Positions 17,301-61,978 of a stretch of 64,000 bases of DNA are shown here, one piece after another. The translations under genes were made by a program, and so were the position numbers. The notes beneath the pieces were generated by a model, which worked only from the letters and a program-made list of their open reading frames with translations, had not been told where the DNA came from and searched no databases. The DNA lies in assembly GCA_965227295.1 (NCBI GenBank), contig OZ245742.1, positions 5,056,001-5,120,000 on the forward strand, read 5' to 3'. The DNA comes from Leptonemataceae bacterium. GTDB lineage: Bacteria > Spirochaetota > Leptospiria > Leptospirales > Leptonemataceae. Numbering within the stretch: position 1 is the stretch's first letter; each line of letters opens with the position of its first letter.

Positions 17301-20300
17301 TCGGCTCTCCTTCGCCGCCGGGACCGATGGCGATGCCACCTTCTTCGCTTTCACCGTTTTCGTTGCCGTCGGGACGTTCGCCGTCCGGCCACTCTTCTCC
17401 GCCGGCGACTTCGCTTTCTTCTTCATCGCCGCCGAAGTTCTCTTCCCACCAATTGCTGAGATCTTCTCCGGCCGTATCGGCGGCGCCGCTCAGCACGGCC
17501 GCGACATCGTCGATCTGGCCCAGGGGCGTATCTTCGCCGAGGGGCGGGTCCTCGCCCCAGCGATCCGGGCTCGTGGCCCAGTCTTTTAAGTCTTCCAACT
17601 GATCTTCGATGCTGTCGAGGTACGGCGACGACAGGCCGTCCTGTTCGTTGTATTTGGCAAGATCGAAGCCGCCGCCACTGAGCGCGCCCGAAAAACCGTT
17701 CTCGGAATCGTAGCCGACGCCCAGGTCCAGGCCGCCGTAGCTGCCGGCGAACGAACCGTCCACCTGGTCGCCGTCGACGTCCACGTCGAAGCCGTTGCCC
17801 TGAACGTTGCCGGTGAATTGGCCTGCGGTGAAGTCGATCTCGCCGTCCACGCCGAAGCCCGAGCCGCCCAGGTCCGAGGCGTCCACGCCGAACTGCGACG
17901 CTAACTGATTCACATCGCCGGTTAAGCTCAGGCCGCCCGGGCCGTAGCCGGCGTCGAGGCCGTAGCCCGAGGCATCCACGGAAAAGCCGCTGTTCGAATT
18001 CCAGCCGGCGTCGACGTCGACGCCCCCGAAAGAAATCGTATTCAGATCGATGCCGAGGCCGCCTGCCTCGCTGTAATTTAAGTTTCCGTACTCGGAACTT
18101 AAGCCGGTCGTCAGTCCCTCGCCGGAGGTGTAGCCGATGGTGCCGTCAAAGTCATCGCCGAGGAAAGACGTGTCCACTCCCGCGGACTCCGCCAGCTCGC
18201 CGACGTCGGCGTTCAGGCCCCAGTCACCGTTGTTGTAGTTCGCCTCGACGCCGTACCCGGAGAAGCCCGCCGTCAGTCCGCCGTCGCCGTAGTTGAGTTC
18301 CAGGGCGGCAGAGTCGTCGTCGCCCCAGGAGTACGAGGCACCGAAACCGTCCTCTTCGTTATAACTTAAGTCCAGGCCGCCGTTGGTATAACCCGCCGAG
18401 AAACCGTCATTCTCGCTGTAGTTTAAGTTGAGTCCTTCGTCATCGTCACCGAGTTTCAGGCCGGCGGATAGCCCTTCGTTCTCGGAATAGTTGATGCCAA
18501 GGCTGCCGAAATCATGGCCGTAGCCGACCGAAGCCCCAAAGCCGTCCTGGGTATTGTAGCTCACGCCCGCCTTGAAGCCGCCGTAACCGAGACCCGCGGA
18601 CACACCTGTCCCCCCGTGCTCCGAATGACTGACCGTCACTGTGGCCGGACCGTAGCCCACGCCGACGGAACCGCCGAAGCCGTTGTCCGGTGAATACGAC
18701 AGGCCCACGCTCACGGCGCCGCCGGTAGCCATCTGCACGAAGCCGTTGGCAATGCCGCCCACGGCACCGACCAGCGCGCCCTGCAAACCGCCGCCGTTGT
18801 TGACGCTCTGGTACGCACCGGCGACGGCGCCGGCGACGGCCAGTGATGCACCGGCGGTGAACGGGGCGGCAATGGCGCCGACTACCATGATGGCGCCGCT
18901 GACCACGGCCTGTTGTTTGGCCTTCTTCGCGGCTTTCTTCGCCTTCTGTTGTTGCGAGAACATCGACGTGGTGCCCGGCGGCAAACCCAACGCCGTATCG
19001 ATGGCCGACATGACCTGGCCTTCAATGTAACTGCCCACGGCCTCGTGGGGCTTCGCGCCGCCGAGGATCGCGCTGATGATCGACGGCGGAATGCCCGTCG
19101 CCTCGCCGATGATCTGCCCTGCCCGGGAACGCATCTCACTGGCCAGGGCCTGACCGAAACTCGCACCACCGAGCATGGCCTTCGCCAGCGACTCGACCAG
19201 TTGCGCCTGCTCTACATGGAACGAAACATTTTGTTGAAAGGTCTTTTCGTTTTCGCGGGCGAGTTTGTTCGCGTCATCGATCTGCTGCTTTGCAGATTGC
19301 AGCTTGTCGCCCAGGCTTTGATTGTACTCGTTGAAGGATTCGCTGAAGTCGCCGCCAAGACCGCCGAGATCCCAGGCATCGAAGACGTCGCCGCCGGAAA
19401 GCAGTTCCATGGCGTCCGGTGGGAGGATCGTTACGGTCTGGTCCTCCATCTCACGCTCGTAGGAATCGCTGTCCGTGGCGGCCCCGCCGGTGTAGTTCGC
19501 CTGGCCCGAGGCGATCTTGCGCTTCATGGTTACCGCGCCGGTCTTCGGGTCCACGACGACCTCGAAGCCCTCGTCCTTATGCTTCTTGCGTTCTTCGGCT
19601 AACTTTTTCTGAAGTTCAGTTTGCAGACGATCAAACTCGGCCTGATCAAAGGCCGTGTAGTACTTGAGTTCGCCGTCGACCTCGTCGTCCCGCAGTTGTG
19701 CCAGCTCGGCCAGGCGCTTTTCTTCTTCAAAGCGCTCGCGGTTCGTGAGAAAGGAAATCTCACCGTCCTGCCGGTTCGCAAGATCGGCCACGCGCTCGAT
19801 GGCGTTGTCCCGGGCATCCTTCGCGCGCTCGTGCATGGACCGGGCGTAGCTGAGATTCTTAACACCCGTGGTGGCCTGGTAGAAACTCTGAAGCAAGTTC
19901 TCCAGGGCCGTCGCATCCACGCCGCCGCCGGCACGGTTAAAGTCCGCGGAGATCGCATCGAGGCGGCGTTGCGCGTCCAGCATCTGCGCGCTCACCGCGC
20001 TCGCAGACAGACCCGACGTACCAAGCTGTCGTTCGATTCGATCCATGGCGCGAGCGGTACTTGCATCCAGTTGCTGCTGGAGATTTCGAATGTGTGTTTG
20101 CGCCGCAGCGGAGCCTTCGTTCTGCGCCTGCTCTTCCGCGCTGATCAGGGCCGCCCATTGCCCGCGCCCCTCGCGATAGACACGGTCCATCTGCGCGGCA
20201 TAGGCGTTGCGCCGGGCCAGGATCTCGTCCCGGCCGGCCTCGTACGCCGCCGTGGCCGAAGCGCGGATGCCCACGGCCTCGGTCTGAAAGTTCGCGTAGT

Positions 20301-21822
20301 TCTGTTCGTACGCGGCGACCTGGGCCTCCCAGTCCTGAATCGCCGGCAGCAGATTGTTGCGCCAGTCGAGGGTAATGGGCGTCAGCGTATCGACGTACGA
20401 TTGATGGGTGACTTCGTTCGCCGCGGCCGCCGCGTCGTACCAGTTACCGGTGACAGTGACGCGCATGCGCTGCTCGGCCCAGCCGTCGACACCGAAAGGC
20501 GCGTTGAAGTTCCACAGGCAGATCGGGACACCGCCGATGCCGCCGCAGCCCGCCGCATCGAAGGTGAACGCGCTGTTTCCGTGAGCACTAAAGCACTCCC
20601 CCGTACGCGCGGTTGCAATTTGAATGATGTTTACCGTGTAGTGTGCCGGCGTGCTGTCGGCGCAGATGTCCATGCCTCCGCCGTTGATCGAAACGAAGGT
20701 TTTGCCGTACATCGACGAAAGCTGATTCAACAAAGGTACGTTGTTGGCACCGCCGCTTTCCATATATAGAGCGACGGTATTCACGAGGGGATTCAGACGC
20801 CAGTCGAGGACGTGGTTGTTGCCGTTGACCCATTGGTCCACGGGAATGGTCCCCTGCTTGATGCTGTCGTAGTACGTGACCGTCGTTTCTTCGACGGCCT
20901 GCTTCGATTCCAGCTCCGTCGTCATGCTTAATGTGAGCGCGGAGAGTGGGACGTTGTTCGCCAGGTCCGCCTTGAGCTGATTGATGAACGCCTGGAAGTC
21001 GAGGCCGGACTGGTTCAACACGCCCGGTGAAGAATAAAACATGCCGTTGCCCGCGAGCAGGCTTTCCATATTCTGCACGGCCGCGTCGATGGCATCGCGT
21101 ACGGTTTTTTCGTAGGCCTCGATTTGAGCCAGGGACTGCGCAAACTCCGCCTCTTTGCCGTCCAGTTCGGAGAGCGTGCTGCGATAATCGTTTTCGAGGT
21201 TCTGCAATGCCTCGCCCAGGTCCGCGATGCCGGCGTTGGCCTGTTCCTGCATGCGGCGTTCCCATTCGGCGTAACCCTCGCTGGCGCTGCCCGATCCGGG
21301 CGTCGCTGTCGGCACGTTGTTCATGGCGTCGGCGGCGGCCGCTTCCCGCTGGCCGTCGGTCGCCGTAAGGTACGCTGAGCGTTCTTTAGCGACTTCGGCC
21401 AGGGCGGCCGACTCCCAATCGGCCCGGGCCTTCGCCTTCTGAATTTCCAGTTCTTTGCGTAAATAGTCCTGATACTCGGCCACGCTGTTGAAAGCGTCCG
21501 AATTGCTGACGCTCAGAACTTCGTTCTGGATGGTCGTGTCGACCTGGGCTTCCCAGGCCGCGGAGAGCGTGTAAAGGCCCGAGGCCATGACAGACTGCCA
21601 TTCGGCGGTGGTGGGAGCACCCCGGGCCAGCTCGACGTACGGAGCGAGGGAGTTGCTTTCGAATCCGGGGGTGCTGATATTCGGAACCGACACCGGACCG
21701 GCACTCAGACCACCGGTGGGCACGGCGGTGGTTACGGTAAAGGTTACGGTCGCCAGCCAGGTAACAAAGTTTCTTCGCCGACGCGTCCATCCGCCGGTAC
21801 GTGCTTCCCAGGATGTTTGCAT
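14344..21822 (-). CDS. Giant secreted polymorphic toxin 2 (TIGR04388-like, subfamily A) with C-terminal minimal kinase-like domain
   Basis: Likely start MQTSW at 21822 (GAGGGG RBS); closely parallels toxin 1 up to VAGGEE; C-terminus IGHGDFKTV...E...GYLMKHIP...NDLQGMIDPETGVFYVMDP. Confidence 0.8.
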   Translation of the reverse strand: MQTSWEARTGGWTRRRRNFVTWLATVTFTVTTAVPTGGLSAGPVSVPNISTPGFESNSLAPYVELARGAPTTAEWQSVMASGLYTLSAAWEAQVDTTIQNEVLSVSNSDAFNSVAEYQDYLRKELEIQKAKARADWESAALAEVAKERSAYLTATDGQREAAAADAMNNVPTATPGSGSASEGYAEWERRMQEQANAGIADLGEALQNLENDYRSTLSELDGKEAEFAQSLAQIEAYEKTVRDAIDAAVQNMESLLAGNGMFYSSPGVLNQSGLDFQAFINQLKADLANNVPLSALTLSMTTELESKQAVEETTVTYYDSIKQGTIPVDQWVNGNNHVLDWRLNPLVNTVALYMESGGANNVPLLNQLSSMYGKTFVSINGGGMDICADSTPAHYTVNIIQIATARTGECFSAHGNSAFTFDAAGCGGIGGVPICLWNFNAPFGVDGWAEQRMRVTVTGNWYDAAAAANEVTHQSYVDTLTPITLDWRNNLLPAIQDWEAQVAAYEQNYANFQTEAVGIRASATAAYEAGRDEILARRNAYAAQMDRVYREGRGQWAALISAEEQAQNEGSAAAQTHIRNLQQQLDASTARAMDRIERQLGTSGLSASAVSAQMLDAQRRLDAISADFNRAGGGVDATALENLLQSFYQATTGVKNLSYARSMHERAKDARDNAIERVADLANRQDGEISFLTNRERFEEEKRLAELAQLRDDEVDGELKYYTAFDQAEFDRLQTELQKKLAEERKKHKDEGFEVVVDPKTGAVTMKRKIASGQANYTGGAATDSDSYEREMEDQTVTILPPDAMELLSGGDVFDAWDLGGLGGDFSESFNEYNQSLGDKLQSAKQQIDDANKLARENEKTFQQNVSFHVEQAQLVESLAKAMLGGASFGQALASEMRSRAGQIIGEATGIPPSIISAILGGAKPHEAVGSYIEGQVMSAIDTALGLPPGTTSMFSQQQKAKKAAKKAKQQAVVSGAIMVVGAIAAPFTAGASLAVAGAVAGAYQSVNNGGGLQGALVGAVGGIANGFVQMATGGAVSVGLSYSPDNGFGGSVGVGYGPATVTVSHSEHGGTGVSAGLGYGGFKAGVSYNTQDGFGASVGYGHDFGSLGINYSENEGLSAGLKLGDDDEGLNLNYSENDGFSAGYTNGGLDLSYNEEDGFGASYSWGDDDSAALELNYGDGGLTAGFSGYGVEANYNNGDWGLNADVGELAESAGVDTSFLGDDFDGTIGYTSGEGLTTGLSSEYGNLNYSEAGGLGIDLNTISFGGVDVDAGWNSNSGFSVDASGYGLDAGYGPGGLSLTGDVNQLASQFGVDASDLGGSGFGVDGEIDFTAGQFTGNVQGNGFDVDVDGDQVDGSFAGSYGGLDLGVGYDSENGFSGALSGGGFDLAKYNEQDGLSSPYLDSIEDQLEDLKDWATSPDRWGEDPPLGEDTPLGQIDDVAAVLSGAADTAGEDLSNWWEENFGGDEEESEVAGGEEWPDGERPDGNENGESEEGGIAIGPGGEGEPTAGGGQGSGEAVAERSEDLPDMKVYIAPPDAMEDTLPDFEEWELKGTFRANTTAFPSAEDLRRQKKVEGYFAKLLLNQYPNDFSAEDNLAAEIEWQGDKTICAKNKNICFDAGDVLRWNVTYETKRADDQLQSSAESMLSKHAANVAANEDVELDENDPRDRIEKTVAEVSADYLEQRQEWQQRWDRRDPSDLKARKALLAERAAMEEKQHDDLRYQIDRLRGYDRDVPVVVRMKDGTVHYGAIEGQDQVMIRLAMPGGKRITIEKEDLHRVVLVKEVKARGGEGIVINERGGPGDGMTAAAPFDKSDIQYKKAVRTFNVDGQQVLFTAHRDEARNHYYYEGELWDGRKMRFTYEETGLLRQEIWRAPEGGSDYREYLQEKYWDAEGQRALLRGFAGPRGEARGFDQNTAAALRKNDPLFLFGQKWAKEGGYYERTNSEGETVRIYIRPDGIVEEKTYQSIFSGGGYETRFLDAAGNRVQPIITKLTPEEERQARQEDEALIQEGTIRNKERDPEKIAENPVALARAIAALGLQERPTESRLPWANQYHYCDAAACHDPVEVIRKWQGTGDYRNYLQEPLTEENKTRTLLQTTLKTLNAAYDQIERDFSIETVHQLKGAIDAIRQSLGPPPNLDAIYAYSLTEQGAAFIDNLALSVLPGTSQVQAFFEVVREWKQGNHLKAGAIVASEVAFSALPVAAVFGFDELALRIARRADVDVTSSLRRSRLDAAEKARLREAEIKKRRQVDGHDSGFDSYTAHLTPGELAGVRRANQVAEEAWKDFHSRLTALRGQNITVDPEPIGHGDFKTVHATRNDSEIAVGFAKNQASLSFVRDEVVGLKQMKDYGVRVIPHSATGKMTAPGGTKTEGYLMKHIPKDPAFGLELHSKSTGPNFVERLERYRKQLLSKPGGREKVEGLIGQFKQLRKFSEDYYINDLQGMIDPETGVFYVMDPLLNAEKKAVVRLPEDFKPTDNLELIDEWIEALSG

Positions 21823-22108
21823 TCGACTTCCCCTCTGCCGTTCATTCTTTGATGCCGCCGAAGCCGCATCAAAGAATACACCGAGCAAGAAGCAAAGAAA
21901 TAGCAACAACTACAAGGAGTCGACTCATTTTCCGAAAAAGCGCCGGATGGACGCACAGACTAACTTACGAAGAAATAAAGCTACCAAATCCTGAGTAATC
22001 CAATACCACAAATTGTGTAATTAACTACAGCATTCTGTGTAATCAACCGGAAGATAAAATTGCATCCGTTCCTTTGAACTGCGGAAATTAATTACTATAC
22101 GTCTTTTA

Positions 22109-22747: not shown

Positions 22748-22843
22748 GGCGCTAAGGATACAGCTACGGCGGCGGCGATCAAGCCGAATATCGTTTCAGG
22801 AAAGGCTTGACCACCAGGAAATTCCGGTTTGTGTTTCCAAATT

Positions 22844-23758
22844 ATGTCGAGACTCCGATCTTACTCTCGCCCGCGCATCATCGCCGTCCTTACATTCGCC
22901 GGCGTTTTGATTGCGACACTGTCCTTTACCGGTTTCGCGTCCATCGACGCGCAAGAAAGCGATGCCCCCACCCGTACTATGAATCCAGAAGCACAAAAAT
23001 ACAACAACCGCGGCCTGAACTACTTTTCCCGCAACGATTTCAAAAACGCCCTCAAAGAGTTTCGCAAGGCCGCGAAGGTCGATCCGCAAAACCCGGAGTA
23101 TCCGAACAACGCCGGCATTGCCGAGCTGAATCTGCGCCGCCCTGCCGACGCCCTGCAGTACTTCGAGACGGCCATCCAGTTAAACAAGGATCTGCCGCTG
23201 TATCATTACAATCGAGGACTCGCCCTCATGCAACTCAGTCGGCCGCGCCAGGCCGAGGAGGCGTTTCTGGCGGCCACCGCGCGCAATCCGGAGTACTTCG
23301 AGGCCTGGGTCTATCTCGGTCTCTTACAGTACAATGAACGCAAGTTTGCGAAGGCCGAGGAAGCCTGGCGCAAAGCGGCCGATCTGCGCGAGGACGCCGA
23401 GGTCACGAACAACCTGGGCATGGCTCTGCTGGAACAAAACAAAACCGAAGAAGCCGAGCAACGTTTCCGCGAGGCCATCTCCATCAACGCCTCGTATCCG
23501 CTTTCGTACTTCAACCTGGGCGTGCTGCTGCAACGCCGCAACAACTGGGCCGAAGCCGAAAAGCAGTACCGCCAGGCCGTCCGTCTCGATCCGAACAACT
23601 TCCAGCCGTACTACAACCTGGCCATCGTCCTGGAAAACCAGGAGAAGGCCGACGAGGCGATCCAGGCGCTAAAGACATATTTGCAGAAGTTACCGCCCCA
23701 GGCCGCCCAGCTCCGCGCGGATGCCGAGGCGCGTTTGAAGCGTTTGCAGAGTCAGTAG
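22844..23758 (+). CDS. Secreted TPR-repeat protein (paralog group A)
   Basis: Signal peptide ending IDA-Q; EYPNNAG, YHYNRGLAL, YFNLGVL, YYNLAIV. Confidence 0.9.
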   Translation: MSRLRSYSRPRIIAVLTFAGVLIATLSFTGFASIDAQESDAPTRTMNPEAQKYNNRGLNYFSRNDFKNALKEFRKAAKVDPQNPEYPNNAGIAELNLRRPADALQYFETAIQLNKDLPLYHYNRGLALMQLSRPRQAEEAFLAATARNPEYFEAWVYLGLLQYNERKFAKAEEAWRKAADLREDAEVTNNLGMALLEQNKTEEAEQRFREAISINASYPLSYFNLGVLLQRRNNWAEAEKQYRQAVRLDPNNFQPYYNLAIVLENQEKADEAIQALKTYLQKLPPQAAQLRADAEARLKRLQSQ

Positions 23759-23766
23759 GCGCGAAG

Positions 23767-23810
23767 GCACACCCGCTCCGCCCCGCGAATAGGGCGGGGC
23801 TCCGGGGTGC
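23767..23810. terminator. GC-rich hairpin after the TPR gene, at the array boundary (no U-tract)
   Basis: gctccgccc-cgcgaata-gggcggggc stem with outer gcac.ccc/ggggtgc pairing. Confidence 0.35.
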
Positions 23811-23829
23811 GGATTCGCTTGCTGGATTC

Positions 23830-26285
23830 TTACGAAGAAGACGCCGGGGACTTATGCTTTCCGCCGATGCGGAAAGCCGGCGGTTCAGAAATCTCGCTGA
23901 AGCGAGAATTCTGCCGGTGCGCCTTACCCCGTTCCCCGGCATGGCCTCCGTTCATCTGCTGGAACCAGCCGTGACCGTAAAAGGCTTAATGAACACTGGC
24001 CGCCACTTACTTCGCGATTCGGGGCGTAATCGAACAAATTAAACGTTTTCGCTAGCTCAAGAGCCGCGGTTCTGCGTTTGCCGTGAGATACACAAGGTAA
24101 GTTGCGCAATGGTGAAGGGATTGATTTGGCTACGGCTGAGCGGGAGTTGTGGTGTTTCGTTTTGTTAAGAATGCTGCCAGTGGGGAACCAACTGCCGCGG
24201 CCCCAACAAGTGGGGCCTTGCCGACACCGGACGTCGGTTTGCGACTCAGCGACTATAGCGTCTCCTGCAACGAAGACGCCGTTCCGGTGCGCGCCCCACA
24301 TATCCCCGGCATGACCTCCGACCGTAAGCTGGAACCAGCCGTGACCATAAAAGTCTTAATACAAACTGGCCTCAAATTACATCACGATTCGGGGCGTACT
24401 CGAATGAATAAAACGTTTCCGGTAGCTCAAGAGCTGTGGTTCGCGGCGTTAGTCGTGAGACACACAAGGTAAGCTGCGCAATTGTTAAGGGATTGATCTG
24501 GCTACAGCTGAGCGGGAGTTGTGGTATGTCGTTTTGTTAAGAATGCTGCGTTCGACCCGGACGCGGGTTGTGCGATTCAGCTACCATAGCGTTTTCTACG
24601 GCGAAGACGCCGGGGACTTATGCTTTCCGCCGATGCGGAAATCCGGCGGTTCAGAAATCTCGCTGAAGCGAGAATTCTGCCGGTGCGCCTTACCACGCTC
24701 CCCGGCACAACCTCCGTTCATCTGCTGGAACCAGCCGTAACCATAAAGGCCTTAATGTACACTGTCCGCAACTTACACCACGATTCGGGGCGTACTCGAA
24801 CGAATAAAACTTTCCGGTAGTTCAAGAGCTGCGGTTCGCAGCGGTTGCCGTGAGGAACGTGAAGTAAGTCGTAAAACGTTGGAGGGAATTTTTTGGCTAC
24901 GGCGAAGCGGGAGTTGTGGTTTTTCGTTTTGTTAAGAATACTGCGTTCGACCCGGACGTCGGTTTGTGACTCAGCTACCGGAGCGTTTGCTACGGCGAAG
25001 ACGCCGCTCCGGTGCGCCTTACCACATTCCCCGTCATGACCTCCGTGGTCGCCTGGAACCAGCCGTAACCATAAAGGCCTTAATCTAAACTGGCCTCAAC
25101 TTACGTCACGATCCGGGGCGTGTGCGAACTACCCGAGCGTTTCCGGCAGTTCAAGAGCTGTGGTTCGTTGCGTTTACCGTGAGACACACAAGGTAAGTTG
25201 CGCAAAGGTTAAGGGATTGATTTGCCTACAGCGAAGCGGGAGTTGTGGTGATTCGTTTTGTTAAGATTGTCCGCCTCGACCCGGACGCTGGTTGTGCGGT
25301 TCGGATATCGCAGCGTTTCTTGCGAAGAAGACGCCGGGGACTTATGCTTTCCGCCGATGCGGAAAGCCGGCGGTTCAGAAATCTCGCTGAAGCGAGAATT
25401 CTGCCGGTGCGCCTTACCACACTCCCCGGCACGACCTCCGTGGGAGGGGAACAACTGCCGCGGCCACGACAAGCGTGGCCTTGCCCCTGGAACCGGCCGT
25501 ACCCTTAAAAGCCTTAATACACACTGGCCGCCACTTACACCACGATTCGGGGCGTACTCGAACAAATTAAACGTTTCCGGTAGTTCAAGAGTCGCGGTTC
25601 GTAGCGGTTGCCGTGAGACACACAAGGTAAGCTGCGCAATTGTGAAGGGAATTTTTTGGCTACAGCTGAGCGGGAGTTGTGGTGATTCGTCTTGCTAAGA
25701 ATGCTGCGCTCGACCCGGACGCGGGTTGTGCGATTCAGCTACCATAGCGTTTCCCAGGACGAAGACGCCGGGGACTTATGCTTTCCGCCGATGCGGAAAG
25801 CCGGCGGTTCAGAAATCTCGCTGAAGCGAGAATTCTGCCGGTGCGCCTTACCACGCTCCCCGGCACAACCTCCGTTCATCTGCTGGAACCAGCTGTACCC
25901 ATAAAAGTACTAATCCAAACTGGCCTCAACTTACACCACGATCCGGGACGTACTCGAACGAATAAAACGTTTCCGGTAGTTTAAGCGCCACGGTTCGTAG
26001 CGGTTGCCGTGAGACACACAAGGTAAGTTGCGCAATTGTGAAGGGATTTTTTTGGCTACAGCTGAGCGGGAGTTGTGGATTTTCGTTTTGTTAAGATCGT
26101 CCGCATCGACCCGGACGCTGGTTGTGCGACTCAGCTATCGTAGCGTTTCTTAGGGCGAAGACGCCGGTCCGGTGCGCCTTACCACACTCCCCGGCATGAC
26201 CTCCGTTCATCTGCTGGAACCAGCTGTACCCAAAAAAAAAGCCTTAATCTAAACTGGCCTCAACTTACGTCACGATCCGGGACGT
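23830..26285. repeat. Non-coding tandem array of about 330-bp structured units (6 full plus 1 partial) with optional 67-bp and about 45-bp hairpin cassettes
   Basis: Anchor GAAGACGCCG at 23837, 24272, 24603, 24997, 25327, 25761, 26157 (periods 435, 331, 394, 330, 434, 396); conserved blocks CTGGAACC, GCGGGAGTTGTGG, GACCCGGACG; no ORF conserved across units. Confidence 0.95.
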
Positions 26286-26290
26286 TGCGG

Positions 26291-27259
26291 TTATTCCACC
26301 GCACCGCCGTGGATCTGGGCGTGAAACTTCTTCGCGATCTCCTGCGAGATTTCCTGTAAGAACGTGGCACGCTTCAGGGTATCGTCGTCGATCACGAAGT
26401 TCACCGCGCCGACGCGGCGGCCCTGGGGGTCAAAGATCTCCAGAAAAACGAGCGTGTTCTCTTCGACTTCCAGCAAGAGTCCGGTCTCCGTGCGACCGAT
26501 GGCGCCCTGAATAAAATAATCGAGGTCGCTCTTGCCGCTGATGCGCTCGATCTCCTGCGCGCTCAATCGGCGCGCGTCGGGTTTTACGATGCGTTCCGGG
26601 GCCCGGGTTTCGCCGGCGATGCCGCGCAGGCGGCGGGGCAGTAGATCGTACGTGGCGTCGTAGTCGCGGGGATCGTAGGCGTCGATGTAACCGTCCTCCG
26701 TAACACGAGAACGCCGCGCCGGACGGGCGTTCTCGACGACCGAATCGCTCACCTGCACAAGACCGGCGTCACCGGCGTAAGTGTTCTCGTCGTCACCGCC
26801 GCCCACGGGCGCCGTCTCTTCTTCGGCGGCCGGCTCCGCATCTTCTTCGAGCGAATCGACATCCTCCGGAGAATCGGAATCGTCCTGCATCTCTTCGCCG
26901 GACTCCTCCAGCATTTCGTCCGCTGCCTCGTCCGTCGCCGGCTCCGCGGACTCTTCGCTGTCCGGCACAAGCTTGCGCTCTTCCGGAGCGTCCTTATCCT
27001 CAAGGACCTCGTACTGGACCTCGCCGATCCGGTAGCCGCGTTCCATCAGCTCAAAGCCGAGCATGTCGGTGAAGTTCTTGCTCGAGAACGGGTTGAAACG
27101 CACGTCGCGGTTCTCAATGAAACCGATGCCCACGTTGGCCACCTCGTTGGATTGGGTCTTCACCACGCGCACTTCACTGCTCGAACACGCCGCAAACAGC
27201 GCGCAGCTCAGCATGACGAGGATGCCTTTTGCATTGTTCATCGTTTTCATAATCATCAC
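26291..27259 (-). CDS. Lipoprotein with a long acidic low-complexity insertion; third gene of the TolC operon
   Basis: Lipobox FAAC; VGIGFIENRD...FTDMLGFELMERGY; Glu/Asp-rich middle; DYFIQGAIG. Confidence 0.8.
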   Translation of the reverse strand: MMIMKTMNNAKGILVMLSCALFAACSSSEVRVVKTQSNEVANVGIGFIENRDVRFNPFSSKNFTDMLGFELMERGYRIGEVQYEVLEDKDAPEERKLVPDSEESAEPATDEAADEMLEESGEEMQDDSDSPEDVDSLEEDAEPAAEEETAPVGGGDDENTYAGDAGLVQVSDSVVENARPARRSRVTEDGYIDAYDPRDYDATYDLLPRRLRGIAGETRAPERIVKPDARRLSAQEIERISGKSDLDYFIQGAIGRTETGLLLEVEENTLVFLEIFDPQGRRVGAVNFVIDDDTLKRATFLQEISQEIAKKFHAQIHGGAVE

Positions 27260-27283: not shown

Positions 27284-28285
27284 TTACTCCGCTTCCAGGC
27301 TGAAGCTGAACGTGGACGGGAGCGTATCCCCGTATATGTCCGTCGCCGTAGTATCCACTTCCAGGGTATAAAACGGAAAGCCGCTGCCCGACGAATCCTG
27401 GGCCAGGTCGTAGTCCGACGTTCCGAAGGCCGTCGTGCCGCCGCAGGAAGCGAGGTCCTCGGCGAAGACTAAGGTCAGCGCGCGGCAACCGAAAGGCGAG
27501 ACCGCCTGGCAGTCATTCCACGACCAGGAAGAAAGCCGGATCGTCGTCACCGGCGGCGAGATGCGCGAAAGCGACACCGCGGCCACCGTGGAATTCGGAT
27601 CCATGTATCGACTGAAAATGACGACGATGTTGTCCGTGTTGGCGTCGGTGCAACTGCCGGCACCGGTGTCCCCCGGGCGCAGCGTATAAAAGGCCGGCGA
27701 GAGAATCGGCAGACTGTCGTCCCACCAGCACGTGCCGATGGTATGATCGCCGCCGACGTTGCTGCCGGTTCCCGGATAACCGCTACAGCCGGACTGCGAG
27801 GCCACGCCGACGGCCTGCACTGCCAGGTCGCCCTGCGGACCGATGGACGTTACGCCGACCAGGAACTCCGCGTCGAACTGTTCGCGCAGGTCGCGGCCGT
27901 CGGTGTCTTCACAGTCCGTACTCATGCTCATGGTGAACGAACCGGTACCAAATTCACTGCGCGGCGTAAACACGTAGAAGTCGTTGAAGACATATCCGTA
28001 ACCGGGCACGCTGCCGGCGGTGGAACTGGCCGTGGTCGGTTGCACGTTGAAGGCCGGCGGGCACTTCTCTTTGCTCATGAACTTGTTAAAGCGAATCGAG
28101 ACGGTCTCCGTGGGCGACACACCCACGGCGCCGGCGGTGGGCACCGAACTTACCACGATGGGCTGATCGCTGAGCCCGAGCAGCGGCGCCGCAAAGAACG
28201 GATCGTCCACGGACTCGGAGCAGGCCGCGCCGCCTGCCAGAAGCGCGCCGAGCGCGAGTATGTTGGCTGCATTTTTTAGTTTCAT
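27284..28285 (-). CDS. Ig-like (Big_5-type) Cys-containing lipoprotein
   Basis: Lipobox GAAC; VVSSVP..GAVGVSPTETVSIRFNKFM; second Ig-like unit IVVIFSRYMD...ATDIYGDTL...FSF. Confidence 0.8.
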   Translation of the reverse strand: MKLKNAANILALGALLAGGAACSESVDDPFFAAPLLGLSDQPIVVSSVPTAGAVGVSPTETVSIRFNKFMSKEKCPPAFNVQPTTASSTAGSVPGYGYVFNDFYVFTPRSEFGTGSFTMSMSTDCEDTDGRDLREQFDAEFLVGVTSIGPQGDLAVQAVGVASQSGCSGYPGTGSNVGGDHTIGTCWWDDSLPILSPAFYTLRPGDTGAGSCTDANTDNIVVIFSRYMDPNSTVAAVSLSRISPPVTTIRLSSWSWNDCQAVSPFGCRALTLVFAEDLASCGGTTAFGTSDYDLAQDSSGSGFPFYTLEVDTTATDIYGDTLPSTFSFSLEAE

Positions 28286-28309: not shown

Positions 28310-29929
28310 TCAATCCAGTTCCACTTTTTCGATTTCGAAGCCCTGCACTTCCCCGTCCGGAATTTCTTCGCGGCGTTCTTGCTCGGACTCCTCATCCAGG
28401 TACAGGCGGCGCAGTTCTTCGACGTTCAGATCCTCTTTGCCCTCGGCCTCGATGTCCTCTAAGTCACCGTCCAGGATCTTGCCCGGCAACGTGTTGCCTT
28501 TGTTGCGGCCGTAGCGAAACAAATCGAGAGACCCCGGATCCAGGGCCGCGGCGAACTCCAGTTCGTAGCTCGCAATGATATACGCGGCGATGGCATCGGT
28601 CAAATCTTCCTGGGCCTGCACCAGCTCCACCTCGGACTCCAGAACGTCGGCCCGACGGACCTGACCGGCCTCGTAGCTGGTGCCCAGAATGCGAATCGAC
28701 GCGTACTGGAAGTAGACCCGGCCGTTGCCGATGCGGATGGACTCCCAGGACTCGCGCAAATCGTCGTAGGCGCTGTCCACCTCGATGGCGAGTTGATTGT
28801 TCAGTTGATTGTGCTGCGACAGCGCGTCGGCAAGTGCGGTCTTGCTCTCTAAGATGCGCCGATCGTAACTTAAATCGTCGAAGAACTGGACGTTGGAGTT
28901 CGTGGAGCCGGTGCGGGATTGGCCCTCGTTGCTCACGTCCGCGTTGCTGGAGGTCGAGGTCGTATGCGGTCCCAGCGGAAAGGTCACGCGAAAGTTCACG
29001 CCCCAGGTGTCGTCCCGCAGCGGAAACTTTTCCCCTTCCCGGCCGACGTAACCGCCCACGGAGACCTGGGGAATCCAGGCGTTCTCCGCGATCTCCTTTT
29101 CCTTTTTCAGGCGATGCACGCCGGCGATGGAACGTTTGTACTCCGGGCGTAACGACCGCGCGCGCTGCACGAGCAGATCGCGGTCCACGTCCGGCGGTTT
29201 CAGAAAGTAATCGTAGAACAGGTTGCCCTCAAGTTCCAGATCGATCTCGAAGTCCAGGTTCATGGCCAGTTTCAGCTGATGCAGGGACTGGCGGTACTCG
29301 TTGCGCGCGCGTTCCACGGAGAGTTCGATCTCCCGCAGGCGCGCCGCCACGGTGAGGACCTGTACGCGCGTACCGAAGCCCAGGCGTTCTTCGAGCTGGG
29401 CCTGGCGTAACTGTTCGTGAGCGCGAGCTAAGGACGCGAGGTTCAGTTGAATCTTACCGTAGGCTGCCAGGGCCTGAAGATACGCGCTCTGGATGTCCAG
29501 GCGCAGTTGGTTGTAAGTAATGCGAAAGTCTTCTTTGGTCAACAGGCCGTCGATCTTCGCGAGATCCAGGTCGAGACCGCGCTGGCCGCCGTCGTAAATG
29601 ACCTGCTCGATGGTCACGCGGATTTCGTTGGAGATGATGTCGGTCTCGCTGTCGGCGATGGTGCGGCTGCGATCGAAGGAGAGGCCCAGGGACGGCAAAT
29701 AGGCGCGCCAGCGTTCGGTGATGAGTTCCTTCACCGCCGCCTGACGATAGTCGATGGATTGCAGCACGAACGAGTTCGCCACACCGATGCGTACGGCGGA
29801 GTCCGGGCTCAGCACGAGCTTCTGGCCGGTGTTCGGTCCGGCCGGCAGCGTCCGTCCCGCAAACATGTAGAGGGAGCACAACAGCATGGCAACGGCTCTA
29901 AGGGTCCTATTTTTGTTAAATACTTTCAC
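28310..29929 (-). CDS. tolC: TolC-family outer membrane channel
   Basis: Two OEP repeats: YLPSLGLS...IEQVIYDGG; RPE...WIPQVSV...; YEAGQV...DVLESEVEL..A. Confidence 0.85.
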   Translation of the reverse strand: MKVFNKNRTLRAVAMLLCSLYMFAGRTLPAGPNTGQKLVLSPDSAVRIGVANSFVLQSIDYRQAAVKELITERWRAYLPSLGLSFDRSRTIADSETDIISNEIRVTIEQVIYDGGQRGLDLDLAKIDGLLTKEDFRITYNQLRLDIQSAYLQALAAYGKIQLNLASLARAHEQLRQAQLEERLGFGTRVQVLTVAARLREIELSVERARNEYRQSLHQLKLAMNLDFEIDLELEGNLFYDYFLKPPDVDRDLLVQRARSLRPEYKRSIAGVHRLKKEKEIAENAWIPQVSVGGYVGREGEKFPLRDDTWGVNFRVTFPLGPHTTSTSSNADVSNEGQSRTGSTNSNVQFFDDLSYDRRILESKTALADALSQHNQLNNQLAIEVDSAYDDLRESWESIRIGNGRVYFQYASIRILGTSYEAGQVRRADVLESEVELVQAQEDLTDAIAAYIIASYELEFAAALDPGSLDLFRYGRNKGNTLPGKILDGDLEDIEAEGKEDLNVEELRRLYLDEESEQERREEIPDGEVQGFEIEKVELD

Positions 29930-31453: not shown

Positions 31454-34400
31454 TCAATCCTCATAGTCACCTCGTGCTTTGGCCCGGCGCCTGAGTTCAT
31501 CCGCCTCCTGGCGCAAGCGTTCTTCGCGAGGCTGCGGCGGTAGTTTCTTCCATTTGGCAAGGTCTTCATTCTTCTTAATGTATTCTTCGCGTTGCTTCTG
31601 TCGTACGAGTTCTCGTTCGCGTGCGACCTGCGCTTCGTGTCGGCGGCGGGCCTCCGCAATCGCCCTCGCCTCGTTGCGCTGCCGTAGGATTTCCGCTTCC
31701 CGGCGCAGGCGTTCCCCATACGAAGCCGGCGGATTTTGGGCCATTTGCTGCCGGGCGTAGGCCTTGTCCGCCGCGACCTGCCGCTCACGTTGTTCCCGGG
31801 CCGCCTGAATACGCGCGGCTTCCTGGGCTTCTTGCCGGTATTTTCTTTCGAGGTCGTCGGCCGTAGTCGCGCAACCGTAGCAATCCATCGTAATCGTATG
31901 TGAGTCCACGCGCTTAACGTTGTCGGTTCGGTCGTAATCGATCGCACCGAAATCCAGGTAATGCGTCGTGGACTCTTCCTTGTGCAGGTAACGAACGCCC
32001 GAGAGTGGCGGGCCGTTGGCAACGCGATTCAAGATGCCGCCGATCGAAGTGCGCCACTCGACTTCGTGTTTCACCCGCGAAGCAGTCGAATAGTCCGCTC
32101 GAATGGTTTTTTCCGTTCTGTCCGCGAGACCGAAAAGATCAAGGGTCCACCCGGTGATGGTTCCTTCCGACCCGACCCCGCCGAGCAGGCCCGCACCCAG
32201 GCCGTAGAAACTACCGGTCGGTCCACCTTCGAATTCGTGATTGCCCGTCGTAACGTTGTAGGCGTAATCCACCCGACCACCGAACGGCCCGCGAGACGCA
32301 CCAATGCCGCCGAATTGTTCGATCTCGGTCTGCCCTTCCGAATTGACATAGTAGCGCACACCGCCGGTCAGACCGCCGGCCCAGTTCGGGTTGATGTCGC
32401 CGTTCATGCCGGCGAGACCGTCAACTTCAATGCCGTTCCATACTGTCTTGCTGTACAGGGGAGCGATGCGCCAGTTCTCTTCTTGATTGAGGACCAGGTC
32501 CATGGGCGGCAGGAGACGATCAGGGGAATACAGATGTAGCAGATTCGAGTTCGGGGGAAGCAGCAACACCTGGCCGTCGGGCCCCTTCAAGGGTTCGCCG
32601 TCCGGGCCCACGATCGTCTCATAGAGCTGTCCGTCCTTCTCCACCAGAAATATGCCTTCCTTCTCACGCAGGCGTCTGCGTCGTTCCGCCTCGGCCCTGG
32701 TTCTCAGTACGTGATCGGTCTTGCGGATGGTCAGGGTGATGGGATTGCCCCTGTCTTCTTGAGGATAATTATGCACGAGCACGTCCACATCACTCACAAA
32801 GTATGTGTGCGTGTCTTCGACTTCGATGTTGTACACGACATCATCGCGCCACTCCCGGCTCACACTGGCAATCTCCGCGGCGCTGCTGCCCGTGGCGCTC
32901 GCCAGCATGGATCCGTCGACCGCCGAAGACGCACTGTAGGAAAGTTGCCCGGCCTGCAGTTCGCGCACTTCGGTCCAACCCCGGCCCGCGATGTAGAACG
33001 GATGATTGAACGTGGTCTCGATCACCGGGCCGCCGTCGTCGTAGGCGACCGTGTAGATGAGATTCGTTCGGTGCACGAAGGTCTCGGTCACGGTTTTGTA
33101 CGATACACGCTGCGTCTGCTCGTCCCAGCTTAAGACACGATCGCCGACACTTACGTCTTCGATCTTTTTGTACCACTTGCCGTCCAGTTGAAACGCGCCT
33201 TCGGCATTCGGAGCCGTGCGCACCAGGGTGCCCGCAACGAAACACGTGTTGTATACGAACTCACCGTTCTGCGTATCCAGCATGCCGTCGGCCGTGCTGT
33301 AGGTTCCGCCGATCCACTTCACGGCGTCGCCGATGGCTCCGGTGAACTTATCCCAGGTCGTCTCCCGGGACTCGCCGGAGTCCCCGCTCGCCAGAAGGTT
33401 CTTCGCGTAAGTCGCCGTATGCCAGAGCGACGGATCTTCCCGCAGCAACTCAGCCTGCTCCGGCGTCAGCTTGCCCTGATGTACCATGCGATCGATATAG
33501 CGATCCTGCGCAATGGCGCGGTTTTCCTTACTGTTCCGATCCCGGAGTCGATAGAACTCTTCCAGTTCTTCCTGAGTGGCCTCTTCGGGACGATTCAGGA
33601 ACTTGTCCTCCAGGAATGCCAGACGATCCGCCATGGCCTGTTCCTTTTCACTCTGCGTTTGAAAATCGAAATCCAGGCTGATGTCGTTCGAATGCCCGGA
33701 ATACTGGCCGTTCGCGTCGACGTTTACCGTGAGCGTATTGCCCGCCGAGTAGCTGTTCAGCCCGATGCCGTACTTATCTTCCTCGCCCACCGAGTTGATG
33801 AACTGCGCGCTCTTGCTGCCGTCGGAGTTCAACGTCAACCCGAGACCGGCCGTATGCGTGGCCGAAGCGCCTTCAACCTGTTTGCCGTCCCGATAGCGAT
33901 CCACCTTCGTTTTGTACGTAAGCTGCGCGCTGATGCTGTTGTTCCCGTCCGGCGAAAAGTTCGCGCTCATGCTGCCGCCGAAGCCGCTGTCCGTGTTGTA
34001 CGATGCGCTCAGCGATCCGCCGGTGTAGCCGCCGTCCGCGCCGAAATTCATGCTTGCGTTGAGACCGTAGCCGTCGTCGCTTTGCAGGCCCGCGTTGACG
34101 CTGGCGCCGGTATAGCCCTGGCCTTCTTGAAAGTTCAGACTGCCGCCGAGGCTGAGTCCCGGCACCGGCGCCCCCGCAATCGGGATGCTACCGCTGATCG
34201 AACCGCCGAAGCCGGTATCGGAATCGTACGAAAGATTCACGCTGACGCCGGCCTTCGACGTGTAATGGTTGATCACCGACGACACGCCCGAAGCCGCCGC
34301 GGCCTTCAAAATATCTTCGCTGCTGTCACCTTTTAGATAGCCCTTGTAACCCTGTTTCGCCGCCATGTAACCGGCGAACGCGGCCGTGCCCCAGCCGGTG

Positions 34401-39471: not shown

Positions 39472-40353
39472 TTAGCGGCCGCGCATTTCCCGCAATCGCC
39501 CCTGCGCGTCCTGAATCTGCTGCGTCATCTTCGGCGGCACGCGGCGCAGAAACTCTTCGAGGTTCGCCACGGCGGCGCCTTTCTTCGCTAACTTCTGCTG
39601 AACGATTCCTAAGTTGAGATAGGCCTCGAAACGATCCGGCGTGAGCCGAATGACGCGCTGATAATCCTGCTCCGCGAGTCCCAGGGCCCCCGTCTGTTGA
39701 TGCACGACGCCCAGGTTGTAATGCGCGTTGGCGTAGTTCGGATCGATCTGCAACGCGCGGCGCAACGTTCGCTCCGCCGCTTCGCGATCTCCGAGCCCGA
39801 GGTACGCCGTGGCCAGGTTCGTTTCAATGTCCGCGTTCTCTTTCAAGGCCGCAGCGTTTTCAAAGTGGCGCGCCGCCTCTTCGTAACGGCCGGCGTTGTA
39901 GTAAATGAGGCCGGCGTAAGCCTGGGCGTCGAAGTAGTCTTTGTTGATGCTGATCGCTTTGAGGAACGCCGCAAGGGCCGGCTCGTAATCGCTCGCCGAG
40001 TAAAACGCGAGGCCCATATTGTAATGATACATCGCTTCGCCCGGGCGCAACTCTACGGCCTTCTGAAAAAACTCCACCGCCTTCGGGATCTCCCCCATGC
40101 GCAGATAACTCATGCCGATGTTGTTCGGATACTCCGCGTTTTCCGGGTCGACCTCGTGGGCTTCGAGAAAGTGCGGCAACGAACGCACGAAGGCGGCCTG
40201 TTGAAAATGCGCGAGGCCGGTTTCGTTTGCGGCTTCGGCCCGAGCGCGGGCCGTGTCCGAGACCGTGGGGGAGCAGGCTGCGAGGGTCGACAGCGAAACG
40301 GACAGCAGGATCGCGAGAATTTTTTTGCGGGGTGCCATGCTCATATCCTTCAA
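39472..40353 (-). CDS. TPR-repeat lipoprotein (paralog group A)
   Basis: Lipobox LAAC; EYPNNIG, MYHYNMGL, HYNLGV, YLNLGIVQ. Confidence 0.9.
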   Translation of the reverse strand: MKDMSMAPRKKILAILLSVSLSTLAACSPTVSDTARARAEAANETGLAHFQQAAFVRSLPHFLEAHEVDPENAEYPNNIGMSYLRMGEIPKAVEFFQKAVELRPGEAMYHYNMGLAFYSASDYEPALAAFLKAISINKDYFDAQAYAGLIYYNAGRYEEAARHFENAAALKENADIETNLATAYLGLGDREAAERTLRRALQIDPNYANAHYNLGVVHQQTGALGLAEQDYQRVIRLTPDRFEAYLNLGIVQQKLAKKGAAVANLEEFLRRVPPKMTQQIQDAQGRLREMRGR

Positions 40354-56202: not shown

Positions 56203-56205
56203 CGA

Positions 56206-58614: not shown

Positions 58615-58717
58615 GAGGACAATGGATTGCACAGGGAAACGTGATGGCAAGCGATGTTCTGCCCGGAACGACGCGGATTCGGTTGACGGGAATAAGCAGC
58701 CGTTGTCTGCTCCGCTC

Positions 58718-61890: not shown

Positions 61891-61978
61891 GGACGATGCA
61901 TGATTCCAGGTGGTTCGCCAGCGGATCAATCACGAATCGTGGGGGCTTGCGAATGTTACGGCGAAGGCGGGGCGGAAG

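Follow-up and report, generated by a model that had tools for sequence, protein, structure and literature searches.

A 2.5-kb stretch of tandemly repeated DNA fills the gap between two convergent genes at this locus, and the question it raises is what such an array is: a set of structured RNA genes, a mosaic of intergenic repeats, a relic of coding sequence or repetition without function. The original prediction had left the choice between a structured non-coding RNA (ncRNA) array and a BIME/REP-like mosaic. We examined the array within the window, i.e., the whole 64-kb stretch of DNA analyzed, together with related sequences from the same genome. The array itself, its position and its non-coding status were all borne out, whereas the description of its backbone as full of short dyads did not stand as a structural signal.

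Arrangement of the array between two convergent genes

The anchor sequence GAAGACGCCG lies on the plus strand at positions 23837, 24272, 24603, 24997, 25327, 25761 and 26157. The whole window contains nine matches to it vs. 0.38 expected, a count that none of 100 shuffled sequences reached. The anchor-to-anchor periods are exactly 435, 331, 394, 330, 434 and 396 nt, which reproduces the seven anchored copies, with a partial last unit, that had been predicted. In line with this, a unit profile run over the 64 kb on the array strand (nhmmer) recovered six full units and one partial unit, and no unit outside the array. The array is about 2.5 kb long and holds approximately 6.4 copies of a backbone unit of about 330 bp. 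Pairwise identity between units is 77–91%, i.e., a within-array divergence of 9–23%, so that the copies are indeed visibly diverged.

All units are read on the plus strand, and they differ in the presence of two optional cassettes, A and B. Unit 1 (23837..24271, 435 nt) and unit 5 (25327..25760, 434 nt) contain both; unit 3 (24603..24996, 394 nt) and unit 6 (25761..26156, 396 nt) contain cassette A; unit 2 (24272..24602, 331 nt) and unit 4 (24997..25326, 330 nt) consist of backbone alone. Unit 7 (26157..26285) is truncated to 129 nt, is devoid of cassette A and includes a run of nine A residues at 26228–26236. The two cassettes account for the length differences, as had been proposed, except that B does not keep to one site and occupies different positions in units 1 and 5.

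The array adjoins two intact genes. Upstream, the gene for a TPR-repeat protein of 309 aa (22829..23758, plus strand; Pfam TPR_2, E = 1.8e-39, and other TPR families) converges with a downstream LIC10494-family lipoprotein gene (26291..27259, minus strand; NCBIfam NF033169, E = 1.4e-42). The latter is the last gene of a TolC/Big_5/lipoprotein operon (28310–29929, 27284–28285 and 26291–27259, respectively; Pfam OEP and Big_5), and a lipoprotein 79% identical to its product occurs in a relative. Unit 7 ends at 26285 and the lipoprotein ORF begins, stop codon included, at 26291, which leaves the 5-nt gap originally reported.

At the other end, 78 nt separate the TPR stop codon from the first anchor. 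They contain a GC-rich hairpin region, the leader (23761..23818; fold z of −2.34 on the plus and −3.24 on the minus strand), after which there is no T-run. A second array elsewhere in the genome is preceded by a homologous leader, seen as the N-terminus of the annotated ORF P0009, which tblastn aligns from 23761 on. The plus-strand segment 23806..23836, which aligns colinearly with the final part of unit 4, was considered as the possible diverged tail of a partial unit; its local alignment score of 19 was not above that of shuffled sequences (15.8 ± 2.0, maximum 23), and this candidate was rejected.

The ORF scan of the window covered 33 large ORFs, all compared with Pfam and 11 of them also with NCBIfam. 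As had been claimed for cas and transposase genes, no cas, transposase or integrase family was matched among these ORFs, and neither a RAYT nor an IS200/IS605 transposase was present. The scan for tRNA and tmRNA genes found none, and the GC-skew profile showed no switch at the array of the kind expected of an origin or terminus.

Folding, covariation and signals for transcription

The better surviving of the alternatives to the mosaic is a tandem ncRNA locus. It would be transcribed either as plus-strand read-through from the TPR gene or as a minus-strand 3' extension of the TolC/lipoprotein operon, and cut into units. Its module would be a domain of about 100 nt around cassette A, possibly together with the C-rich backbone motifs TCCCCG and CCTCCG, both invariant in seven of seven units, as anti-Shine-Dalgarno seeds. 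No strong terminator was seen between the array and either flanking gene, which favors such transcription, and tandem arrays of sRNA genes are known, NsiR1 being one of them.

A signal in favor of an RNA comes from cassette A. This element of 65–66 nt occurs in four of the seven units (1, 3, 5 and 6) at a constant backbone site: 23847..23912 (66 nt), 24613..24678, 25337..25402 and 25771..25836. Its copies are 98.5–100% identical by blastn (100% for the first and third, 98.5% for the second, which has one substitution), compared to approximately 82% for the backbone. Over 65 columns the four copies differ at 0–1 positions, where backbone divergence predicts about 12 per pair. The first copy forms two hairpins, one with a 9-bp stem and a 4-nt loop and one with a stem of about 12 bp and a single mismatch. 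With its flanks, the cassette-A domain is very stable (z of −3.05 to −4.28 for the predicted folds). The fourth copy, for example, taken from 25755 to 25900, is predicted to adopt a multi-branch fold with z of −4.25 on the plus and −4.28 on the minus strand. An 8-bp helix closes this fold by pairing with a backbone segment, of which the first six bases are TCCCCG, invariant in all units. Such conservation, stability and use of an invariant segment speak for an RNA module. Against it stand the equal folding of the domain on both strands, as a DNA palindrome would give, and the absence of cassette A from three of the seven units.

Cassette B is a shorter element of about 40 nt. In unit 1 (24176..24232, core 24189–24222), near alignment column 385, it forms a 7-bp hairpin with a 5-nt loop; the copy in unit 5 (25440..25490, core 25452–25485), near column 115, is 88% identical to it. 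Two stem pairs are changed on both sides between the two copies, as read directly from the sequence. Neither the unit nor a cassette has a further copy in the window, 61 kb of which lie outside the array.

Outside the cassettes, the backbone folds like shuffled sequence on both strands, which speaks against an RNA array. The cassette-free units 2 and 4 fold no better than dinucleotide shuffles (z of −0.65 and +0.71 on the plus strand, +1.09 and −0.26 on the minus strand, respectively), and sliding alignment folds in 18 backbone windows on both strands gave z of −1.34 to +1.67 with SCI of 0.32–0.64. Within the power that six to seven copies allow, covariation is practically absent as well: RNAalifold pairs with compensatory change numbered one of 64 on the plus and two of 73 on the minus strand, an outcome that the original prediction had itself named among its grounds for refutation. 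The dyads that it had singled out are present in the backbone; none of their 37 pairs shows a compensatory change, and 86.8% of cells are paired, the same 86.8% as in the shuffle control. One backbone hairpin does favor the ncRNA reading: on the plus strand it is fully paired in all six full units, with a one-sided change from A-U to G-U in two of them, and it depends on G-U pairs, which on the minus strand would be mismatches.

Signals for transcription of individual units were equally scarce. No sigma-70-like promoter site was found in the array on either strand, vs. 0.9 expected, and inspection of the unit consensus by eye revealed nothing convincing in the way of sigma-54-like or ECF-like promoters or integron attC core sites. 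A terminator-like hairpin with a T-rich tail was flagged in four of the six full units; these hairpins are weak (z of −0.3 to −1.0), and the translation of P0015 implies that the tail is not kept in one unit elsewhere in the genome. These observations bear on the comparison with the NsiR1 arrays located upstream of hetF in Nostoc/Anabaena, which are likewise intergenic direct repeats of a few hundred bases, diverged and without an ORF. Each NsiR1 repeat has its own regulated promoter and a terminator. In contrast, the units of the present array have no promoter-like site by the sigma-70-like model and only weak terminator-like hairpins. Rfam returned no match at gathering thresholds in the whole window, the best permissive hit having E = 1.4, and thus no family match for the array by either scan.

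Taken together, the fold, covariation, promoter and Rfam tests gave no support to the first predicted alternative, in which structured ncRNAs lie in tandem or the TolC transcript has a 3' extension that is processed, and we regard it as unlikely. As a separate idea, the array was considered as a CsrA sponge through its GGA motifs and this was discarded, the count being near compositional expectation. By hand estimate, GGA motifs number about 6–7 per unit, with about 5.6 expected from composition.

Further copies, age and the remaining alternatives

Seven spurious ORFs annotated in the same genome (P0009 and P0011–P0016) translate at least seven further units located elsewhere, all in backbone context. 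Their identity does not exceed 77% with any translation from the window, or 84% among themselves. Out of 36 translated backbone residues, 21–29 match within the array and 20–27 between arrays. Since two units diverge as much when they share an array as when they come from different ones, the arrays are old, and since the family recurs elsewhere in the genome, the array is not specific to this one toxin/secretion locus. Full-length cassette A copies are included in P0011, P0012, P0013 and P0016; these four share one variant residue, and the four window copies share another.

Beyond this genome, no copies were found in any other genome in the two protein collections searched, nor were matches obtained in plasmid and phage collections (blastn with two units). 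A 22-position pattern with 18 specified bases, which fits all six full units, gave 19 single matches in public genome contigs from unrelated taxa, where a rough estimate expects about 17 by chance. As array carriers these contigs were rejected, as the nhmmer unit profile found nothing in 16 of them and only the seeded site in the other three. Literature searches returned no match for TIGR04388 and, in a general search for long tandem non-coding arrays in bacteria, nothing relevant among the papers listed. A 2026 preprint on prokaryotic non-coding space reports that periods of 60–79, 18 and 5 nt make up 96.1% of its periodic clusters, and 330 nt is not among them.

Bacterial genomes, which usually delete useless DNA, seldom contain long non-coding tandem repeats that have persisted and diverged. 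Since the arrays are old, the retention of 2.5 kb for so long is unusual for functionless bacterial DNA and hints at selection on the array, a point that weighs against the mosaic reading and would also suit an ncRNA locus. For cassette A, the near-invariance of the whole element, loops included, is explained by purifying selection on a functional RNA or protein-binding site at least as well as by recent spread, which likewise weighs against the mosaic reading. In its boldest form, the argument would make the ~100-nt cassette-A domain a new structured RNA, or a new recognition element in single-stranded DNA, that is present in multiple copies and strongly constrained by purifying selection. 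Its genes would then be clustered in the 330-bp arrays, whose transcription would come from sequences flanking TIGR04388 polymorphic-toxin/TolC loci and whose transcripts would be processed into units, and together they would constitute a new tandem ncRNA class tied to toxin export. We consider this proposal rather improbable.

A quite doubtful account, too, is that of a functionless satellite, in which a neutral tandem duplication was expanded by slippage or unequal crossing-over and cassette A was kept uniform through local gene conversion only. The variation in the backbone is largely as such a satellite would have it. Variable columns make up 133 of 326, and divergence is near uniform: the clustering of variable sites is not significant, as 407 of 5000 permutations gave a window variance at least as high as that observed and 331 of 5000 contained an invariant run as long as the longest in the backbone (14 columns). 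Haplotypes are mosaic, the best-supported split being {U4,U6} with nine sites, and many splits conflict. It is the pattern of tandem repeats that recombine, exchanging sequence through gene conversion or unequal crossing-over, and it counts for the mosaic reading as well. The backbone lacks coding, promoter or structural signals, and the variant residue common to the four window copies of cassette A, with another common to the four copies elsewhere, also fits local conversion. What a satellite leaves unexplained is persistence, as a within-array divergence of 9–23% implies that the array has long withstood the bacterial deletion bias. Moreover, conversion limited to 66–90 nt beside an 18%-diverged backbone would not readily be explained unless selection or a specific mechanism were at work, and the family occurs at more than one place, with a leader hairpin common to the second array.

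Coding readings fared far worse. The units could be decayed or silent coding cassettes, namely remnants of a repeat-domain gene, conversion donors for a surface protein as in the spirochete vls and tprK systems, or LDR-like type I toxin-antitoxin modules. A period of 330 nt corresponds to about 110 codons, the array adjoins a lipoprotein gene in a Leptospirales-like organism, and several sister-unit ORFs are annotated in the source record. Nevertheless, all six frames contain 22–33 stops across the array, variable sites show no codon periodicity and the cassette lengths are not multiples of three. No small ORF of constant length is conserved, in agreement with the original description. ORFs that begin at the same alignment column vary in length between 15 and 107 aa, and none of them is hydrophobic over its full length, so that the small hydrophobic ORF per unit typical of LDR-like modules is lacking. 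In the frames searched, the units were neither open nor homologous to an expressed gene, as silent donors would be, and comparison of the array with the rest of the window (tblastx, blastn) gave a best E of 0.003, over short stretches only. None of eight translated array ORFs matched Pfam at E ≤ 0.05. HMMER against 1.84 billion representatives returned one sister ORF and one chance match only. The latter, P0010 (E = 6e-4), is an internally repeated protein of 2840 aa in which a chance motif of 25 bits was counted six times. Finally, the annotated ORFs have a conserved N-terminus of 24 residues, in which the four window copies differ by no synonymous change; the constraint therefore acts on nucleotides and not on codons. 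The coding reading of the units is thus very improbable and close to refuted.

An assembly artefact, with repeats mis-joined or over-expanded, is hardly credible: tandem repeats are a classic source of assembly errors, but these copies differ by 9–23% and in cassette content, so that each is uniquely placeable, the source contig is 5.94 Mb long, and both flanks join cleanly to intact genes.

Comparison with known repeat systems and biological meaning

With the alternatives weighed, we favor, at about even confidence, the reading of the array as a lineage-specific, non-coding, long-period tandem repeat, an intergenic mosaic akin to BIMEs (bacterial interspersed mosaic elements) or to tandem clusters of REP/REPIN sequences and not an array of folded-RNA genes. 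Of the two readings originally offered, this is the one closer to the evidence, because strong folding is confined to two small palindromic cassettes and the backbone shows no significant rate heterogeneity. It is closer also because cassette B occurs at two positions, the family recurs in the genome and the presence of cassette A does not follow the backbone haplotypes. As to the last point, the {U4,U6} split pairs a unit without cassette A with one that has it, and the split between units with and without the cassette is supported by three sites.

On the mosaic reading, the cassettes may be the active or constrained parts and the backbone their carrier DNA. They could have spread or been homogenized between units through site-specific insertion or conversion. 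Any cellular effect would most likely come from hairpins at the ends of both convergent transcripts or in single-stranded DNA, and might consist, as proposed for REP/BIME elements, in 3'-end protection, pausing or termination, or protein binding.

The likeness to REP/REPIN clusters and BIMEs of Pseudomonas and enterobacteria lies in the intergenic, non-coding position between convergent genes, in the mosaic of modules that includes small imperfect palindromes, and in the restriction of the family to one lineage. REP elements have short imperfect palindromes of about 20–60 bp as their repeated core; cassettes A and B are palindromes of this sort, but set in a 330-bp non-palindromic backbone. 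In contrast to REP/BIME elements, the palindromes of the array are optional inserts and not the repeating core. Nor were dispersed extragenic copies found in the window: singlets are absent from the 61 kb of flanking sequence, no copy lies outside the array in the 64 kb, and the at least seven units elsewhere are in backbone context. Genomes with REP systems encode a cognate Y1 transposase, RAYT, and in many cases the repeats flank its gene. No RAYT gene was found among the scanned window ORFs around the array. It may be added, as an observation against the mosaic reading, that a mobilizing enzyme was not found among the 33 scanned ORFs.

A likeness in arrangement exists with Pseudomonas fluorescens SBW25, for which PMC3116915 describes ordered tandem REP arrays, several per genome, in which GI and GIII sequences, up to 12 of them, follow one another with a period of 184 bp. 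Like these GI–GIII arrays, the present family is arranged in ordered tandem and found at several sites of a single genome. Its unit has about double the length and is non-palindromic for the most part, and its copies are 77–91% identical, unlike the REPIN clusters that the same paper calls "nearly identical".

Other systems resemble the array in part. Neisserial intergenic mosaic elements (NIMEs) and Correia elements also form kilobase intergenic mosaics of repeat units with short inverted repeats at their boundaries, often near surface-protein loci; NIME units measure 50–150 bp and are bounded by a 20-bp inverted repeat, and the array has no such boundary. The regular spacing of an intergenic repeat recalls CRISPR, from which the array differs in its 330-bp repeats, in the absence of a cas family among the scanned window ORFs and in having no unique spacers, as had been noted at the outset, since the whole 330-bp period is itself repeated.

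Three features make this family unusual: its units are old, it occupies more than one locus, and it contains an almost invariant double hairpin of 66 nt whose site is fixed. A functional hairpin module would be a new element, of RNA or DNA, beside polymorphic-toxin and TolC genes in a Leptospirales-like lineage that has been little studied. Were the module instead selfish, an insert that chooses its target strictly, it would represent a miniature element of a new kind, for which a tandem repeat serves as landing pad. Should it be neither functional nor selfish, the array would provide a useful negative example, namely that the sight of dyads in a repeat gives no evidence for an RNA structure.

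Repeat units, cassettes and flanking genes

The array at 23837-26285 is genuine and was accurately observed in the original prediction. Seven copies of its anchor, GAAGACGCCG, lie on the plus strand (23837, 24272, 24603, 24997, 25327, 25761 and 26157), and the reported periods of 435/331/394/330/434/396 were reproduced exactly when the spacing was re-counted. Across the whole window, nine anchor matches were found vs. 0.38 expected, a number attained in 0 of 100 shuffles. A unit profile search of the 64 kb detected six complete units and a truncated one, with which Tandem Repeats Finder and a repeat finder were concordant. On the array strand of the 64 kb, this profile returned nothing further except weak palindromic self-hits within cassette A, one of two hairpin-forming inserts.

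These optional inserts, as predicted, account for the unit length classes. Units 1, 3, 5 and 6 carry cassette A (65-66 nt), in each case at identical alignment columns. Cassette B (approximately 40 nt) is present only in units 1 and 5, near column 385 and near column 115, respectively; its optional nature had been recognized, while its placement at two different sites is an addition to the earlier description. The two copies of cassette B are 88% identical across 34 nt, and two pairs of its 7-bp hairpin differ between them, with both sides changed in each. Across the four copies of cassette A, 0-1 differences were counted, vs. the approximately 12 per pair predicted from the surrounding backbone, where about 18% of positions differ.

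The array lies between a TPR gene (22829-23758, plus strand) and a convergent LIC10494-family lipoprotein gene (26291-27259, minus strand), the final gene of an operon that also encodes a Big_5 protein and a TolC-like channel. The truncated unit 7 runs to 26285, five bases short of the lipoprotein stop codon. The TPR stop and the first anchor are 78 bases apart, and this interval contains, directly 3' of that stop, a GC-rich hairpin without a following T-run (23761-23818; z -2.3 on the plus and -3.2 on the minus strand). Since its translated sequence is common to the start of a second array, represented by the spurious ORF P0009 outside the window, this leader hairpin may belong to the repeat element instead of being the terminator of the TPR gene. 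At the opposite end, an A9 run (T9 on the minus strand) at 26228-26236 was observed in unit 7 only, where other units carry A4. At approximately 55-65 nt beyond the lipoprotein stop, it could supply a weak TolC-operon terminator with its U-tract; the fold at this run was no better than shuffles (z -0.32).

The proposed toxin/secretion neighbourhood was borne out by four TIGR04388 giant genes in the window, two of them with PT-HINT pretoxin domains. The giant genes form two paralogous pairs, 7716-13412 with 14344-21909 and 31454-37699 with 41948-49828, with nucleotide identities in 300-nt blocks of 70-85% and 75-81% at offsets of approximately 8.4 and 12.1 kb. Given that both 31454-37699 and 41948-49828 encode PT-HINT domains, the locus is multi-copy and polymorphic-toxin-like. 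Within the gene at 41948-49828, a 69-nt (23-residue) unit is also repeated in tandem and in frame at least ten times, at 44841-45761, with copies 69-88% identical. The window further encodes four MORN-repeat ORFs (40350-41345, 57883-58719, 61045-61929 and 61979-63202), a 7TMR-DISM sensor fused to an AraC-type HTH (37808-39460) and an RND efflux set (49988-57708) comprising two AcrB-like genes and an HlyD-like gene that also matches OEP.

Structure, evolution and coding potential of the units

Within the array, only the cassettes are structured. Compared with dinucleotide shuffles, the cassette-free units 2 and 4 gave fold z values of -0.65 and +0.71 on the plus strand and +1.09 and -0.26 on the minus strand, while cassette-bearing units ranged from -0.25 to -3.1. 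Alignment folds of the backbone in 18 sliding windows (nine per strand, junction included) gave z values of -1.34 to +1.67 against column shuffles, with structure conservation indices of 0.32-0.64. The dyad-rich backbone had been taken as structure; among the 37 pairs of the listed dyads and a per-unit hairpin, none was changed on both sides. In these elements, 86.8% of cells were paired, the same as the shuffle mean, and 30 of 227 cells were unpaired vs. 11 in which a one-sided change kept the pairing. The label "structured" and the ncRNA inference are thus unsupported for the backbone.

Cassette A with its flanks was predicted to form a multi-branch fold, equally good on both strands (z -3.05 to -4.28), in which two long hairpins lie within an 8-bp helix that pairs the cassette start with a backbone segment. 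The first six bases of this segment are invariant. That the array is an ncRNA locus is nonetheless improbable. In its favour, the cassette-A domain is conserved at the level of a functional RNA, its closing helix draws in the invariant backbone segment, a hairpin within the backbone pairs on the plus strand only, via G-U pairs, a strong terminator separates the array from neither flanking gene, and the arrays have been retained though old. Against this, cassette-free backbone folds no better than shuffles, RNAalifold pairs with compensatory change numbered 1 of 64 (plus) and 2 of 73 (minus) in tests on 6-7 copies, and Rfam yielded nothing at gathering scores (best E = 1.4 in a permissive scan). 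Still less probable is a new class of tandem ncRNA linked to the toxin locus. On neither strand of the array was a sigma-70-like promoter found, where chance alone would give 0.9. Four of the six full units were flagged as carrying a terminator-like hairpin followed by a T-rich tail; these hairpins were weak (z -0.3 to -1.0).

Backbone units share 77-91% pairwise identity, with 133 of 326 ungapped columns variable. Clustering of these columns was not significant (window variance attained in 407 of 5000 permutations), and the longest invariant run, 14, was attained in 331 of 5000. Many splits among parsimony-informative sites are in conflict, as expected where the units of a tandem repeat exchange segments. 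The strongest split, units 4 and 6 (nine sites), pairs a unit lacking cassette A with one carrying it, so that the presence of cassette A does not track backbone ancestry; only three sites split the units by cassette A presence or absence. In the 3' third, three haplotypes follow the order a-b-a-c-b-c and are common to non-adjacent units (1 and 3, 2 and 5, 4 and 6), which suggests past higher-order duplication or conversion.

The claim that the array is non-coding held: all six frames contain 22-33 stops, variable columns lack three-base periodicity, and no small ORF is conserved. ORFs with a common start column range from 15 to 107 residues and share no conserved hydrophobic peptide. Eight translated array ORFs contained no Pfam domain at E ≤ 0.05, and the array resembled nothing in the rest of the window, either as DNA or translated. 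In sister units, the source record annotates an ORF starting within cassette A. Its first 24 residues are conserved, with zero synonymous changes among the window copies, and beyond residue 24 it diverges freely and varies in length; the constraint is therefore on nucleotides, not protein.

Related arrays, probably in the same genome

A pattern fitting all six full units gave 19 single matches in 185,579 representative genomes, among which the source genome was not included. As the unit profile matched weakly at the seeded site in three and gave nothing in 16, all were regarded as chance. Plasmid and phage collections contained no match to two units of the array.

Among 1.84 billion representatives, HMMER with the translated spurious array ORFs found one real relative, P0009; another match, P0010, was rejected as chance. 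Six further relatives (P0011-P0016) came from querying a word index with an ORF of 66 residues. All seven lie on one contig, which matches in length (5,938,550 bp) the contig with the window's own lipoprotein. None is encoded in the window (best translated identities 46-77%), and they are at most 84% identical to each other; the same genome is therefore inferred to contain seven or more additional units outside the window. Protein searches with the translated array ORFs found none from any other genome. The host lineage is poorly sampled: the nearest lipoprotein relatives are 79% identical, on a contig of 4.8 kb, followed by those of Leptospirales MAGs at 46%.

P0009 opens with sequence homologous to the leader hairpin region, followed by a unit with an internal deletion and a second unit; the start of the window array therefore recurs in at least one other array. 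By eye, large internal stretches are missing from P0016 and from the first unit of P0009, and P0013 ends in a short internal duplication before exiting the repeat near the truncation position of unit 7. The repeat family thus includes further modular variants, and its arrays may have a preferred end point in common. Translated backbone identity was 21-29 of 36 residues within the window array vs. 20-27 of 36 between arrays, and the cassette-A part matched at 21-24 of 24 residues throughout, both within and between arrays.

A proposed mosaic repeat carrying palindromic modules

The array fits a lineage-specific intergenic mosaic repeat, in which a backbone of approximately 330 bp, without detectable selective constraint, would have been amplified and shuffled by recombination while carrying cassettes A and B as palindromic modules. 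Cassette B resembles a small REP-like hairpin able to land at differing sites. Cassette A would be under strong purifying selection, or would spread and be homogenised with strict site specificity; the position of its array-specific variant, at the single mismatched position of the second hairpin, is compatible with both.

Of the original alternatives, the BIME-like mosaic is closer to the evidence than the ncRNA array, which lacks support for the backbone; BIMEs are presumably comparable elements. The closest described objects are the ordered tandem REP arrays and the REPIN clusters described in Pseudomonas fluorescens SBW25, where the period is 184 bp, GI and GIII sequences number up to 12, and the genome has several arrays (PMC3116915). 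Unlike in REP/BIME elements, the palindromes here are optional inserts rather than the core, dispersed singlets were not seen in the rest of the window, and no RAYT gene is known, and for these reasons we do not file it as a member.

By analogy only, the likely effect of the array is hairpin formation, either in the 3'-terminal parts of the two transcripts that converge on it or in single-stranded DNA. Interest in the array would rise sharply if cassette A were transcribed and processed.
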